Position numbers and translations under genes: made by a program
Source: a virus
DNA: 20,485 bases
Virus genome (UHGV): UHGV-0139389
Direction: 5' to 3' (one strand)
In this document: in pieces, positions 13,110-16,782 of the stretch
Layout of the letters: the number at the start of each line of letters is the position of its first letter
Numbering within the stretch: the first letter of the stretch is position 1
The notes under the pieces: model-generated
The model's input: the letters and a program-made list of their open reading frames with translations, nothing else
Told to the model about the DNA's origin: nothing
Database searches by the model: none

Positions 13110-13481
13110 ATGAAAAACAGAACAAACAAAGGCCAGTTTAAAAAAGGCCAGTCTGGAAACCCATCTGGAAGACCAAAAGGCTCTCGTAACAAAAGCTCAC
13201 TTGTAAAAGCTCAACTGACCATTGATAATTCTGCTGAGTTTGCTGCAAAGTTGTTTGAAGCAATTGTTACAAGGGACGCTGCTAAGCTTGCAGAGTTCGG
13301 GTTAAACACAGACGATGTAACCATCAAGAGCATGATTGAAGTCGGTAAAACTATCATGACCCACTCAGCAGGTGAGATGAAAGCAATTGCAGCAGACACT
13401 AAGAAGACTCCTGATAACGGTGGTCAGTCTCAGACAGATAACAAACCAACGTTCTCTGCTGTTGCAACCCTTAAAAAATAA
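13110..13481 (+). CDS. hypothetical protein with N-terminal GNPSGRPKG motif, 123 aa
   Basis: ATG at 13110, AAGAGG RBS; basic motif FKKGQSGNPSGRPKGSRNK. Confidence 0.65.
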   Translation: MKNRTNKGQFKKGQSGNPSGRPKGSRNKSSLVKAQLTIDNSAEFAAKLFEAIVTRDAAKLAEFGLNTDDVTIKSMIEVGKTIMTHSAGEMKAIAADTKKTPDNGGQSQTDNKPTFSAVATLKK

Positions 13482-13562
13482 TTTTAAAAGATGTTGACAG
13501 ACTCTATAAAGTTGCTCTAAAGTCTGTCACATCAAACAACAAATGAGAGAAGAGAGTAAAAT

Positions 13563-14978
13563 ATGAGCGAATTATTTAAACATGCGCACCTTCATGCAGG
13601 TCGAACTGAAAATGGTGCTGTAAACCATACTTCATCAATGTCTGCTCTTGTAGACTTTTACAAAGCTGCTGGTTCAAGCCGTAGCAATGTAGAAATCTTA
13701 CCAGACTTGTTCTACAAAGCTTTGCGTGAGGATGTTGATGTTGCAGTTCGTATTTTGCTTCATATGCGAGATGTACGAGAAGGTATGGGTGAGCGTAAAG
13801 CCTTCAGAACTGTTTTGCTTCAAGCAATTGAAGATAAAGTTTTAGAGCCTACACAGGTTCTTCGCATTATGGATAAGATTGCAGAACTTGGTCGTTTTGA
13901 TGACTTCAAAATCTTCGTGGGTACTTGTTTCGAGACAGATGCCTTCAAACATTTAGAAGCAGCATTACTAGACCCTGCAACAGCAGGTTTGGCGGCTAAG
14001 TGGTTACCACGAGTCAAACCACGTCATAAGCAGTTTGTAAAACGTTTCTGCAAGTTTGCCAACTTGAGCGAGAAAGAGTACCGCACACTGTTATCTGCAC
14101 TATCTGATACAGTTGAGCAAAAAATCTCTGCTAATGAGTTTGGCAAGATTGACTACAGTAAGGTTCCCTCACTTGCTGCTGCACGTTACCAAAAACTGTT
14201 TAACCGTAAGGATGGAGAACGTTACAAAGCTTACATTGAGTCCTTATCAAAAGGTGAGGCTAAGATTAATGCTGGTGCTGTTTACCCATACGATGTGATT
14301 AAATCTGTCAAGCATGGTAATGCAGATGTTGCTAATGAGCAGTGGAAAGCACTACCAAACTGGATGGCAGAAGGTGAAAACATCTTGTGTATGTCTGATG
14401 TATCAAGTTCAATGTCTTGGGTGAATTTTGGCTCCATTACTGCTCTGGATATTGGTGTATCACTTGCCTTGTATGTAGCAGAACGCAATACAGGTTGCTT
14501 TAAGAATGAGTTGATGGTTTATTCAACAAACCCTCACTTCATCGAACTGAGTGGTGATTTACGAAACCGTCATCGTCAGGTGATGCGACACGTTGAATAT
14601 GGCTCAACTAACTTACAAGCAGCTTTTGACCGCATTCTTGAGACAGGCAAAAGAAACAACTTGACTCAGAAAGATATGCCAAGTAAGCTTATCATCTTCT
14701 CCGATATGGAGTTTAATCAGGTTGATGGGGCTAACGGTCGTACAAACTTTGAAGCAATTCAGAGTAAGTACAAAAAAGCTGGATATGAGATGCCACAACT
14801 GGTATTCTGGTACTTAGCAAACCGTAATGGTACTTGCGAAGTATCTGTTAAGGATAACGGTGTAGCAATGGTATCAGGGTTCTCTCCAGCCACTTTAAAA
14901 GCTCTGCTTGGTGGTGAGAAGTTTGACCCAATCAGTGTAATGCTCAAAGCAGTAATGATTGACCGTTATATCTGGTAA
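13563..14978 (+). CDS. vWA-domain protein with helical N-terminal domain; candidate Ro60/TROVE-like (Rsr-like) RNA-binding protein
   Basis: MIDAS motif ILCMSDVSSSMS (DxSxS) and later FSDME strand = vWA fold; N-terminal ~280 aa helical with GMGERKAFR; resemblance to Ro60 (DVSxSM, FSDEM, MxSGF) is from memory, not a search. Confidence 0.75.
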   Translation: MSELFKHAHLHAGRTENGAVNHTSSMSALVDFYKAAGSSRSNVEILPDLFYKALREDVDVAVRILLHMRDVREGMGERKAFRTVLLQAIEDKVLEPTQVLRIMDKIAELGRFDDFKIFVGTCFETDAFKHLEAALLDPATAGLAAKWLPRVKPRHKQFVKRFCKFANLSEKEYRTLLSALSDTVEQKISANEFGKIDYSKVPSLAAARYQKLFNRKDGERYKAYIESLSKGEAKINAGAVYPYDVIKSVKHGNADVANEQWKALPNWMAEGENILCMSDVSSSMSWVNFGSITALDIGVSLALYVAERNTGCFKNELMVYSTNPHFIELSGDLRNRHRQVMRHVEYGSTNLQAAFDRILETGKRNNLTQKDMPSKLIIFSDMEFNQVDGANGRTNFEAIQSKYKKAGYEMPQLVFWYLANRNGTCEVSVKDNGVAMVSGFSPATLKALLGGEKFDPISVMLKAVMIDRYIW

Positions 14979-14996: not shown

Positions 14997-15025
14997 TTGA
15001 CAATGTGTTTGATACCCTTTAATAT
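14997..15025 (+). promoter_or_regulatory. sigma70-like promoter TTGACA-17 nt-TAATAT upstream of tRNA array
   Basis: Counted spacing; second weaker TTGACA at 15088. Confidence 0.45.
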
Positions 15026-15143
15026 GTTCTACATAGAAACGAAATGAGAGCTTTTCTAAGATACTGAAAAATATTTTAAAAAAGTTCTTGACAACCACTA
15101 AAAAATAATGTTAAAGTGGTTACATAGAGTTTGAAAAGTTTAT

Positions 15144-15305: not shown

Positions 15306-15312
15306 GTTTTGA

Positions 15313-15385
15313 CAGAAGACCAATTACAGCAAACTTAATCTACTCATCTGAAAGTTAATCGGACAAAGAAGATATTTGGTCTGGT
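15313..15385 (+). ncRNA. Stem-closed spacer RNA element U1 (conserved 5' CAGAAGACC..TACAGCAA, 3' GGTCTGG)
   Basis: 5' AGACCAA pairs 3' TTGGTCT; member of 4-copy family with compensatory changes. Confidence 0.4.
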
Positions 15386-15395
15386 CATTAAGAAT

Positions 15396-15472
15396 TGCGG
15401 GTATAGAGAAAGGGCGTCTCACATGTCTCATTAGCATGGTATCGGCAGGTTCGACTCCTGCACCCGCCTCCA
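15396..15472 (+). tRNA. tRNA with anticodon CAT (Met or Ile-lysidine)
   Basis: T-arm GCAGG-TTCGACT-CCTGC, acceptor 6 bp with 1-72 mismatch, loop CTCATTA, CCA. Confidence 0.7.
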
Positions 15473-15478
15473 AATTTA

Positions 15479-15545
15479 CAGAAGACCGTTTACAGCAATA
15501 TTTATTAAATTTTTAGCGGAAAAATTGAAAGATACGGTCTGGTAA
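15479..15545 (+). ncRNA. Stem-closed spacer RNA element U2
   Basis: 5' AGACCGT pairs 3' ACGGTCT; conserved TACAGCAA after stem. Confidence 0.4.
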
Positions 15546-15555
15546 TACTAAACAT

Positions 15556-15632
15556 GGTTAGGAAGCACATAAGGTATGTGCGGTCGCCTGTTAAGCGAAT
15601 GGCACAGGGTTCGAATCCCTGACTAACCGCCA
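15556..15632 (+). tRNA. tRNA-Asn (anticodon GTT)
   Basis: T-arm CAGGG-TTCGAAT-CCCTG, acceptor GGTTAGG/ACTAACC (one mismatch), loop CTGTTAA, CCA. Confidence 0.75.
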
Positions 15633-15701
15633 AATTTAGGAGAGAAGCGATTGCTCACCGATTTGTAAGGTGCAAGTCCTTAGCCTGAATAGAAATCAAA
15701 T

Positions 15702-15789
15702 GTGTCGTTATCCCGTAGATGGTAGCGGTGGGGACTGTAAATCCCTTGTCATTGAGACTCGGTAGGTTCGACTCCTACACGGCACACCA
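15702..15789 (+). tRNA. tRNA-Tyr (anticodon GTA), long variable arm
   Basis: Acceptor GTGTCGT/ACGGCAC, loop CTGTAAA, T-arm GTAGG-TTCGACT-CCTAC, 85 nt + CCA. Confidence 0.8.
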
Positions 15790-15795
15790 AATAAA

Positions 15796-15873
15796 GGTTA
15801 TGTAGTTTAATCTGGTTAAAATACTCCCCTGTCACGGGAGATGATGAGGGTTCAAATCCCTTCATAACCGCCA
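15796..15873 (+). tRNA. tRNA-Asp (anticodon GTC)
   Basis: Acceptor GGTTATG/CATAACC, stem CTCCC/GGGAG, loop CTGTCAC, CCA. Confidence 0.85.
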
Positions 15874-15934
15874 ATTTTGAGAGGGCTATTTAGCCCCTCC
15901 CTTAAAGAGTTCTTACGAGTATTCTTTAAAGGAG

Positions 15935-16010
15935 CAGAAGACCAAATACAGCAAGAATGTATGAAATTTCAAGCCAATTCAATTTTGAAAATTTAAAACT
16001 TGGTCTGGCT
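15935..16010 (+). ncRNA. Stem-closed spacer RNA element U3
   Basis: 5' AGACCAA pairs 3' TTGGTCT; conserved 5' CAGAAGACCAAATACAGCAA. Confidence 0.4.
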
Positions 16011-16022
16011 CAACAAATTTAC

Positions 16023-16153
16023 AGAAGACCGTTTACAGCAAAACTTAAACAATCTATTTCTCCGGTAAAGAAAAGGCGAGGGTTCGATTCCTTCACTCGG
16101 CAGATGTCGAGTTGGTGTAATGGTAGCACTTAAGATGATAAACAACGGTCTGG
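16023..16153 (+). ncRNA. Candidate Y-RNA-like (YrlA-like) RNA: terminal stem enclosing tRNA-like module without anticodon arm
   Basis: 8-bp stem AGACCGTT(16026-16033)/AACGGTCT(16144-16151); inside: T-arm GAGGG-TTCGATT-CCTTC (16078-16094), capped acceptor-like hairpin ACTCGGC-AGAT-GTCGAGT (16095-16112), D-arm-like GTG-TAATGGTAG-CAC. Confidence 0.45.
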
Positions 16154-16160
16154 TAATTAC

Positions 16161-16292
16161 CTTTGTAGATAAGTTATTAAGCTTACTTGTGAGTATGCGA
16201 CCACAAAGGGTGAATGGGTAAATTCTAGATTTAAACCCAAAAAGGCACATCGCTACAGACCTTAAGCAAGTCTGGGTAGCTTATCTACAAAG
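16161..16292 (+). ncRNA. Structured element closed by perfect 13-bp long-range stem
   Basis: CTTTGTAGATAAG (16161-16173) is exact reverse complement of CTTATCTACAAAG (16280-16292); internal hairpin CAGAC-CTTAAGCAA-GTCTG. Confidence 0.4.
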
Positions 16293-16302
16293 ATAATTTA
16301 AT

Positions 16303-16460: not shown

Positions 16461-16536
16461 GCTGGTATAGTTAAGAAGGTTATAACACTCCCCTGATAAG
16501 GGAACATCGGTGGTTCGATTCCACCTACCAGTACCA
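16461..16536 (+). tRNA. tRNA-Ile (anticodon GAT)
   Basis: Acceptor GCTGGTA/TACCAGT (G1-U72), T-arm GGTGG-TTCGATT-CCACC, loop CTGATAA, CCA. Confidence 0.8.
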
Positions 16537-16551
16537 ATTTCAATAAAGTTG

Positions 16552-16580
16552 TTGACATTGAGATGTGACTACTTTATAGT
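16552..16580 (+). promoter_or_regulatory. Internal sigma70-like promoter TTGACA-17 nt-TATAGT
   Basis: Counted spacing 17 nt; best consensus match in window; precedes ~200-nt unassigned spacer and tRNA-Arg. Confidence 0.5.
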
Positions 16581-16782
16581 AACCTTAGTTTTCGTTGCGT
16601 AGCGTCTATTTTGCAAATTTAAAATAAATGCAAACGACAATGTTTTTCTGGCAGTAGCTTGATAGGCTAAACACCAGTGAGGTCTTCCAATCCCTCATCA
16701 AAGAATTTGGCGTACTCGCCCACGGTATGATTAATAAGGTGGGCATCTTTAAGGGCTTTCTAAGAGAGTCTTTAAAGATAAT

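Follow-up and report, generated by a model that had tools for sequence, protein, structure and literature searches.

Pairs of the protein Ro60 and its Y RNAs are already known from phages, and so is the Ro60-like nature of one phage protein, gp130 of Bas63, recorded in a preprint and in PHROGs. gp130 is the anti-Ppl-defence protein of Bas63, and the authors who described it noted its resemblance to Ro60 and suggested that Y RNAs might be present (PhageMaP preprint, PMC11482910). In the Y RNA called YrlA, the arms of a tRNA-like domain follow the order V-T-AS-D, AS being the acceptor-like stem-loop (Chen et al. 2014, PMC4201824). The Class I RNAs of Dictyostelium (Rfam family RF01414) have a short stem formed by their 5´ and 3´ ends, in which structure but not sequence is conserved, an 11-nt motif adjoining the 5´ stem strand, conserved ends AAG...CUGU with the G pairing to the C, and a variable interior, at a length of about 60 nt (42-65 nt); they were reported as existing nowhere outside Dictyostelia (Kjellin et al. 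2021, PMC7919456). Here we describe four elements interspersed among the tRNA genes of a phage, in a 20,485-nt stretch of UHGV-0139389 (the window, to whose full length all window coordinates refer). Each is closed by a shared terminal structure, the handle, around a variable interior, the cargo. We propose, with a probability of roughly 0.7, that a Ro60-like protein of the same phage has Y-RNA-like partners in these four RNAs, the handle being the putative binding site. In Rfam 15 and the literature we found no earlier description of the RNAs themselves, of the handle, of its linkage to DUF2828 or of its identity with the Class I handle, and the handle RNA as such is absent from Rfam.

The window genome is a Felixounavirus, to which Escherichia phage vB_EcoM_Alf5 is 98.7% identical over the region, and the window holds 26 tRNA genes, all on the + strand. 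Exactly four matches to the box CAGAAGACCRWWTACAGCAA are present, at 15313, 15479, 15935 and 16022, always on the + strand, where 0.05 occurrences would be expected by chance and four copies were reached in 0 of 100 shuffles. The full pattern, CAGAAGACCRWWTACAGCAA…YGGTCTGG, is found in four copies inside the tRNA operon, 4-10 nt from tRNA ends. A covariance model of the helix only, built from 20 sequences (R1), returned exactly these four copies at E<0.05 and no other match in the window when run with filters off; default filters miss copy 4, which has a long interior. An earlier note on this DNA had picked out the same four elements, and the spans that we read by hand differ from its own by a few nt:

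15311-15386, + strand: copy 1, between tRNA-Glu (end 15305) and tRNA-Met (start 15396); outer stem 15311-13/15384-86, AGA 15314-16, helix AGACCAA 15317-23 / UUGGUCU 15376-82, UU+ACAGCAA 15324-32, 3´ G 15383; hairpin cargo; R1 55.9 bits, RF01414 17.8 bits

15477-15544, + strand: copy 2, between tRNA-Met and tRNA-Asn; outer stem 15477-79/15542-44, AGA 15480-82, helix AGACCGU 15483-89 / ACGGUCU 15534-40, UU+ACAGCAA 15490-98, 3´ G 15541; cargo a U/A hairpin with an AGCGG loop; R1 59.1 bits, RF01414 20.1 bits

15933-16010, + strand: copy 3; outer stem 15933-35/16008-10, AGA 15936-38, helix AGACCAA 15939-45 / UUGGUCU 16000-06, AU+ACAGCAA 15946-54, 3´ G 16007; R1 43.5 bits

16020-16155, + strand: copy 4, enclosing a tRNA-like core; outer stem 16020-22/16153-55, AGA 16023-25, helix AGACCGU 16026-32 / ACGGUCU 16145-51, UU+ACAGCAA 16033-41, 3´ G 16152; R1 25.2 bits, E 9e-4

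RNAfold closes every copy with a 7-bp helix (AGACCNN/NNGGUCU), an AGA(5´)/G(3´) internal loop and a 3-bp outer stem. The helix starts with A-U, G-C and A-U, its 3´ strand is followed by G, and directly after its 5´ strand comes single-stranded UU-ACAGCAA (AU in copy 3); the 5´ ends of the elements read ACAGAAGACC.... In its general form, the handle is an A-U/G-C/R-Y helix, followed by single-stranded UACAGCAA, with a G behind the 3´ strand. The two versions of the helix are distributed as the earlier note had read them: copies 1 and 3 have AGACCAA/UUGGUCU, copies 2 and 4 AGACCGU/ACGGUCU. The letters it gave for the stretch behind the helix need correction for copy 3, which has AAAT instead of (A/T)TT. 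It had missed the outer stem, which also co-varies (GAC/GUC, UAC/GUA, AGC/GCU and again UAC/GUA in copies 1 to 4) and which, lying beyond the AGA/G internal loop, is an extra feature of the handle in the genus Felixounavirus, and it had linked the elements neither with the upstream Ro60-like gene nor with Y RNAs of the YrlA type or the Class I RNAs of Dictyostelium. From helix to G, the core measures 67 nt in copy 1, 59 nt in copy 2, 69 nt in copy 3 and 127 nt in copy 4. The cargo is a simple hairpin in copies 1-3 and a tRNA mimic in copy 4, the folds confining the tRNA-like module to this copy as had been claimed.

That two adjacent base pairs change together between the copies had been taken to indicate selection on RNA structure rather than plain DNA repeats. 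The joint change is there in the window but amounts to two haplotypes only; the real statistical support comes from relatives. In 38 Felixounavirus loci, from which elements were gathered by sequence boxes only, we found 18 distinct end combinations, among which the outer stem pairs in 54 of 54 cells, with GC, UA, AU and GU all represented, and pairing holds in 35 of 36 cells at the two variable positions of the helix. Yersinia phage P778, whose protein is 53% identical, has three equivalents among its tRNAs with the helices GGACUGU/ACAGUCC, GGAUUC/GAAUCC and GGACUC/GAGUCC, each followed by UUACAGCAA or AUUCAGCAA. Two more distant sets were assembled around relatives of the protein, which belongs to the Pfam family DUF2828: 75 phage loci from IMG/VR (protein 39-48% identical; 908 kb, both strands searched) and, independently, 80 bacterial and archaeal loci from genomes or metagenome-assembled genomes (MAGs; protein 33-42% identical). 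When the elements of the 80 genome loci were aligned, 99.5% of cells paired, double changes were seen at 7 of 7 pairs, and the covariation score was 0.95, compared with 0.27 after shuffling (0 of 500 shuffles reached the observed score) and at most 0.19 with slid partners. ACAGCAA is invariant in the alignments. Selection by descriptor or covariance model favors pairing, and the percentage of paired cells is therefore partly built in; this does not apply to the strand asymmetry, to where the elements lie relative to the gene or to how diverse the pair types are. Complementarity of the boxes is thus maintained in the genus, in P778, in the 75 phage loci and in the 80 genome loci, and its persistence through many double changes upholds selection on RNA structure.

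In lineages that are very distant from one another, the handle is linked to DUF2828 genes. Among the 75 phage loci, TACAGCAAA was the sole non-AT-rich 9-mer enriched within 1.5 kb downstream of the gene (18 loci). A descriptor of the handle (7-nt strand, 0-3 nt, ACAGCAA, 8-260 nt, complementary strand) found 76 elements on the gene strand of the 75 phage loci and 9 on the opposite strand, compared with 7-26 per strand in shuffled loci; for 53 of the 76, the DUF2828 gene is no more than 1 kb away. With R1, the phage loci gave 68 matches at E<=1 and the genome loci 69, and every one of these (68/68 and 69/69, 137/137 together) is on the gene strand. At least one element is present in 46 of the 75 phage loci, just downstream of the stop codon or upstream of the start codon and usually within a few hundred nt of the gene; about 55 of the 80 genome loci carry an R1 match at E<=1, mostly 0-500 nt upstream of the gene. 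The consensus in the distant phages is W-[A G R W U S S]-NU-ACAGCAA ... [S S A W Y C U]-G, with A or U at -1, A at the first helix position (74%), G at the second (91%), the corresponding C and U in the 3´ strand, G at +1 (87%) and most often U at +2. In at least nine loci, minimal hairpin versions end exactly at the Shine-Dalgarno sequence of the DUF2828 gene (for example ...AAAUUCUgaacggaga and ...GUAACCUgaaggaaa), which resembles a translational operator to which the product of the same gene binds, an arrangement that would be autoregulatory. Many element-bearing loci have no tRNA within 6 kb, and thus the association is not with tRNAs as such. Among the roles that the earlier note had listed, a processing signal is disfavored by the handles that stand beside DUF2828 genes in such loci, while a protein-binding RNA gains from the comparative data, which bear out a structured RNA.

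The window's own member of this protein family is encoded upstream of the elements, its open reading frame (ORF) ending 330 nt ahead of copy 1, from:

13563-14978, + strand: Ro60-like protein gene, 471 aa, with a helical N-domain and a vWA domain with intact MIDAS motif

13494-13523, + strand: sigma-70-like promoter of this gene, TTGACA-18-TAAAGT, 10/12, a consensus match only

At E<=0.01, DUF2828 and DUF7788 are the only Pfam matches of the 471-aa protein, and a sequence search of the Protein Data Bank (PDB) with it gave no match. An AlphaFold2 model based on 53 homologues reached a pLDDT of 89 and a pTM of 0.88. When this model was compared with PDB structures by Foldseek, the top twelve matches were all full-length Ro60/TROVE structures (E 2e-8 to 1.5e-6), including Xenopus and human Ro60, Deinococcus Rsr and the Ro60 of Thermus phage phiLo, and those that followed span the vWA domain only (E 2e-3 or worse). 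As modeled, the protein has the Ro60 fold, a helical ring domain joined to a vWA/MIDAS domain, and the elements, like Y RNAs and YrlA, adjoin the gene of a Ro60-type protein. It is the ortholog of Bas63 gp130 (bas63_0130), with 97% identity. The DUF2828 family comprises 8,762 cluster representatives at 50% identity. Pfam describes it as present in eukaryotes, and the mentions of DUF2828 in the literature concern plants and a tardigrade.

Upstream of the Ro60-like gene, an inverted repeat at 13496-13528, GACAGACU...AGUCUGUC, overlaps the promoter-like site; it is unrelated to the handle and could be an operator. No handle stands in front of the window's own DUF2828 gene, only this repeat. A DUF5681 gene (13110-13481) was considered as a second conserved partner and rejected, being found only in near relatives (loci L038 and L045; L numbers denote loci throughout).

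The cargo of copy 4 folds, in minimum free energy (MFE) and centroid predictions alike, into a tRNA-like core:

16044-16134, + strand: tRNA-like core of copy 4
16044-48/16130-34: anticodon-stem-like helix CUUAA/UUAAG
16057-73: V hairpin
16078-94: T arm, loop GGUUCGAUUCC
16095-16112: closed acceptor-like hairpin
16115-29: D arm, loop AAUGGUA

The order of the arms, V, T, acceptor-like stem-loop, D, is that of YrlA, and it is seen in copy 4 only. There is no anticodon loop, and the anticodon-stem-like helix runs into the handle. Across the genus, the T loop and the D loop (GG) are invariant, and the acceptor-like stem exists in three compensatory versions (ACUCGGC/GUCGAGU, ACCCUUC/GAAGGGU and ACACG/CGUGU). 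The Rfam tRNA model RF00005 matches the V/T/3´-acceptor part of copy 4 partially, with 21 bits against a threshold of 29. A permuted or split tRNA gene was rejected as an explanation, given the missing anticodon loop, the lack of an ARAGORN call and the partial, sub-threshold RF00005 match. The same kind of core is enclosed by the handle in L063, L116/117, L108, L076, L065 and L302, and partial matches to the Rfam YrlA model were obtained for L063 (39.2 bits, E 2e-7, local search), L116 (36.7 bits) and L108 (26.7 bits); in L134, two handle RNAs flank a YrlA-like match (37.7 bits). The gathering score of YrlA (RF02553) is 69 bits, above the 26.7-39.2 bits of the related elements. With Rfam models at their gathering thresholds, tRNAs were the only matches in the window and in 11 distant loci. 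As in Y RNAs, the 5´ and 3´ ends pair, and the resulting stem closes off an RNA with an internal loop and variable modules inside. The window RNAs are thus Y-RNA-like in architecture and context, yet outside the YrlA family as it is defined.

We suggest that the four elements are small non-coding RNAs encoded within the phage tRNA operon and would serve as the Y RNA equivalents of this phage, copy 4 corresponding to YrlA and copies 1-3 to the shorter YrlB. They would be transcribed from two promoter-like consensus matches:

14997-15025, + strand: sigma-70-like promoter (10/12) at the head of the tRNA/ncRNA operon
15088-15117, + strand: sigma-70-like promoter (10/12), likewise at the head of the operon

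No terminator-like site was found on the + strand between these two and the next promoter at 16552. From this, the promoters upstream and the 4-10 nt that separate elements and tRNA ends, we infer co-transcription with the tRNAs and release by tRNA processing, which would involve RNase P at the downstream tRNA and 3´ trimming of the upstream one. On the model of Ro60-Y RNA particles, the Ro60-like protein (DUF2828 with vWA/MIDAS) encoded 330 nt upstream would recognize the handle and bind it directly. The cargo might then tether or mimic other factors, such as tRNA-binding enzymes or exoribonucleases, or might instead gate the access of the protein to other RNAs, and the RNAs would presumably act during infection.

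A number of observations weigh against this proposal. Each copy closes with the 7-bp helix in RNAfold, though the energies of single-sequence folding are unremarkable (z -1.3 to -2.0), and the case for structure therefore rests on the comparison with relatives. Pfam TROVE does not match the 471-aa protein at E<=0.01, the YrlA model does not match copy 4 at E<=10, and neither the Ro60-binding motif GNCGAAN0-1G nor the metazoan GGUCCGA is present at the 5´ ends of the elements. By the criteria used, 29 of the 75 distant phage loci have no element. In the reverse direction, from motif to gene, a search of IMG/VR with the pattern AAGGNNNNTTACAGCAAA, in which many loci were too short to judge, found a DUF2828 gene in the locus for 11 of 36 helix-bearing matches, compared with 1 of 85 helix-less ones. 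Six good elements from this search have other neighbors, with no common theme, and some available locus DNA contains convincing elements and no DUF2828 gene; for one element with unrelated neighbors, the DUF2828 gene is 6.6 kb away on the same contig. gp130 alone, on a plasmid or inserted into T7, counters Ppl without any Bas63 RNA (PMC11482910), so RNAs are not needed for at least the anti-Ppl activity. Direct binding to the look-alike Class I RNAs has been proven for one protein only, Rnp1A, which is of the RRM type (PMC7919456).

The last of these points, together with the action of gp130 in the absence of RNAs and the elements without a DUF2828 gene in the available DNA, would also suit a handle that is recognized by some other RNA-binding factor of host or phage, with the DUF2828 protein linked only functionally; without binding the handle, it might act on these RNAs, be under their regulation or belong to the same pathway. 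We regard this as unlikely: the linkage is tight, strand-coherent and often immediately adjacent over proteins of 33-98% identity, minimal hairpins abut the gene's own ribosome-binding site, and the protein shares the fold of a family that binds small RNAs closed by a stem. We give very little credence to the idea that the elements are cis-acting spacers of the tRNA operon, which guide processing by RNase III, E or P or insulate the tRNAs and are then discarded. Their position 4-10 nt from tRNA ends would fit such a role, and the genus-specific outer stem could be a processing feature, but the handle stands beside DUF2828 genes with no tRNA within 6 kb in L048, L051, L052, L055, L057-L060 and L062, the conservation of the 8-nt single-stranded motif reaches from E. 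coli phages as far as Chloroflexi and archaeal MAG contigs, and copy 4 bears an elaborate tRNA mimic.

Slightly less credible still is a motif that does no more than autoregulate the DUF2828 mRNA, as its leader or operator, which would make the window copies decoys or leftovers with no role in trans. In many genomes the element does lie in the 5´ UTR and touches the Shine-Dalgarno sequence; the 5´ UTR of the window gene, however, has no handle, the four copies are placed behind separate promoters and among tRNAs, and elsewhere elements are also found downstream of the gene, in tandem sets of two to four and with cargos of 100-250 nt. Features of the DNA or of coding sequence, namely recombination or homing-endonuclease repeats, promoter-like boxes or the antisense ORF at 15993-16250, strike us as the least plausible origin of the pattern, and a most improbable one. 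Copy 2 overlaps a weak promoter-like match (TTTACA-16-AATATT, 9/12), relatives have HNH genes, and the antisense ORF, which runs over copies 3 and 4, matches phrog_14433 and is annotated as a hypothetical protein in relatives (Alf5_044; bas63_0137/0138, minus strand). Against this, the compensatory changes keep pairing and not sequence, 137 of 137 model matches fall on the gene strand, and frameshifts or stops interrupt the antisense ORF in L032, L040, L043, L031, L014 and L021, while its annotated length is not the same in Alf5 and Bas63. The small ORFs over copies 3 and 4, the sense ones as well as the antisense one that frameshifts and stops break in relatives, were rejected as coding.

Other segments of the same operon also attracted attention. 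Directly 3´ of copy 4, the 147 nt at 16156-16302 (+ strand) form a multibranch structure closed by an approximately 18-bp helix (CCUUUGUAGAUAAG.../...CUUAUCUACAAAG), with an MFE of -43 kcal/mol (z -4.83; 0 of 200 shuffles as stable) and no Rfam match; this is probably another structured RNA of the operon. Behind a strong promoter-like site at 16552-16580, the segment 16594-16782 (+ strand) gives a weak match to the transfer-messenger RNA (tmRNA) family RF00023 (15.7 bits, E 0.03), and RF04321 matches 16478-16662 with 29 bits. A tag-like frame at 16630-16665 (+ strand) reads ANDNVFLAVA, followed by two stop codons, and resembles the E. coli tag ANDENYALAA. ARAGORN made no tmRNA call at 16594-16782, which may be a degenerate or unusual phage tmRNA. 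Two further unannotated segments between tRNAs are 15633-15701, with a T-loop-like GGUGCAAGUCC, and 15874-15932, with two hairpins, GAGGGCUAUUUAGCCCCUC and CUUUAAAGA...UCUUUAAAG.

The distant loci likewise hold RNAs that go beyond the handle itself. At least two large cargos of 160-250 nt, with conserved sequence blocks and no Rfam match, recur inside the handle beside DUF2828 genes:

L052 7471-7721, L061 6494-6663, L062 7459-7685 and L079/L096 7754-7940: one group of large cargos

L090 5479-5642, L102 1714-1877 and 1891-2141, L106 5714-5877 and L108 5435-5673: another group of large cargos

In L159, a Micavibrio MAG contig, the orphan RNA freshwater-1 (RF02979) at 1007-1068 scores 82.7 bits, above its gathering score, and sits amid two handle RNAs and tRNAs just upstream of the DUF2828 gene. 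DUF2828 genes are often found in RNA islands whose RNAs lie on the gene strand (L065 1353-1676, L061 8605-9054, L157 and L168), with contents that include a permuted tmRNA (71.7 bits), a standard tmRNA (75.4 bits) and, in Chloroflexi contigs, arrays of 20-30 tRNAs. Matches to group I introns were seen in phage contigs with the DUF2828/handle pair (L063 11696-11922, 71.5 bits; L106 4253-4443, 40.9 bits). Extra AGCAA repeats are present in the unstructured interiors of the short elements of L051, L055, L057-L060, L062, L088 and L097 (12 observed compared with 1.1 expected, 0 of 500 shuffles), loci that are related and thus stand for few events; the interiors of the D. discoideum RNAs likewise repeat CUUACAG. 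From their sequence, such repeats could be extra binding sites.

If the proposed partnership is correct, it provides concrete, testable candidate RNA partners for a phage anti-defence protein, Bas63 gp130, and carries the Ro60/Y-RNA principle over to a divergent protein family with a second handle, unrelated in sequence. It also defines a widespread protein-RNA gene pair, whose RNA is located in phage RNA islands along with tRNA arrays, tmRNAs and tRNA mimics, a setting that points toward a role in tRNA or RNA surveillance during infection.

The possible relation to the Class I RNAs arose from RF01414, the sole other Rfam family that touches the elements. Copies 2, 1 and 4 score 20.1, 17.8 and 12.8 bits and the best relatives 24.4-28.9 bits, below the gathering score of 41.5, and the alignment covers the columns that define the family, GaUcuC-CUUACAGCAA...GagAuC-UG. 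The D. discoideum sequences read GUUGAC-CUUACAGCAA...GUCAAC-UG, the phage consensus A-AGGUUCC-UU-ACAGCAA...GGAACCU-G and the window A-AGACCGU-UU-ACAGCAA...ACGGUCU-G; the sole systematic difference from D. discoideum is a spacer between helix and ACAGCAA that is 1 nt shorter in phage and window. The window copies have the short 5´/3´ stem with conserved structure but not sequence, termini corresponding to AAG ... CUGU (A-AG...CU-G), and the 11-nt Class I motif CCUUACAGCAA, unpaired next to the 5´ strand, which appears as UUACAGCAA in copies 1, 2 and 4 and as AUACAGCAA in copy 3. A model built solely from 22 D. discoideum sequences (R2) was run on the 908 kb of phage loci at E<=10, and 19 of its 37 matches fell on elements already known beside DUF2828 genes, which occupy less than 1% of the search space; all 19 are full length and on the gene strand, the best with 23.9 bits (E 0.003). 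In a MAFFT alignment of Dictyostelium and phage RNAs, the 5´ halves are in register and the 3´ ends are not, and it was left out of the pair counts. We raise, as a tentative suggestion that is somewhat more doubtful than an even chance, that DUF2828-associated handle RNAs and dictyostelid Class I RNAs are one class, with the shared module AAG-stem / UUACAGCAA / CUG and an ancestral Ro60-like DUF2828 partner. Were this so, Class I RNAs would not be unique to Dictyostelia, and the function that has been unknown since 2004 would be one of cofactors resembling Y RNAs. For these abundant and developmentally regulated RNAs of unknown mechanism, the field would gain a candidate partner family and a bacterial and phage model, and eukaryotic DUF2828 proteins, those of plants included, may have similar, unnoticed partner RNAs.

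Set beside the known systems, the locus resembles that of phiLo, where a phage Ro60-fold protein, among the top structural matches of the window protein, likewise has stem-closed RNAs (Yrl1 and Yrl2) beside its gene (PMC12135203; PDB 9KOP, 9L5Y). phiLo Ro60 differs in being a canonical TROVE protein whose Yrls carry the CGAA motif, and its RNA binding and PNPase complex were proven experimentally (PMC12135203), whereas the window system is known from sequence and model. Bas63 has the same protein directly upstream of the same tRNA array (PMC11482910), but its authors proposed some of the annotated tRNA genes as Y RNAs and identified none, while our candidates are unannotated elements between the tRNAs. 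With YrlA and YrlB (RF02553, PMC4201824), the window RNAs have in common that small RNAs with paired ends adjoin a Ro60-fold gene, that one long member with a tRNA-like domain is accompanied by shorter members keeping only the protein-binding end, and, through related elements, that the cores score 27-39 bits with the YrlA model. They differ from YrlA in the handle, an A-U/G-C/R-Y helix with UACAGCAA and a 3´ G and without GNCGAAN0-1G, in a DUF2828/DUF7788 partner without Pfam TROVE, in a copy 4 below any YrlA score, and in lying in a tRNA operon rather than in an rsr-rtcBA operon.

Class I RNAs are set apart by their genes, which are eukaryotic and driven by a DUSE promoter of their own about 60 nt upstream in a dictyostelid host, whereas the window elements belong to a sigma-70-type tRNA operon of an E. 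coli phage, and the handle RNAs as a group to bacterial sigma-70 operon or 5´-UTR contexts. They are also set apart by scores of 12.8-28.9 bits for the window and its relatives, under the gathering score of 41.5, by phage and bacterial cargos that can be large, tRNA-like ones included, by the known binder Rnp1A and by their reported restriction to Dictyostelia. What the two groups share is the terminal stem, (C)CUUACAGCAA directly 3´ of its 5´ strand, the AAG...CUG(U) termini and a variable interior; in size, the helix-to-G cores of copies 1-3 (59-69 nt) come near the roughly 60 nt of Class I RNAs, and that of copy 4 has 127 nt.

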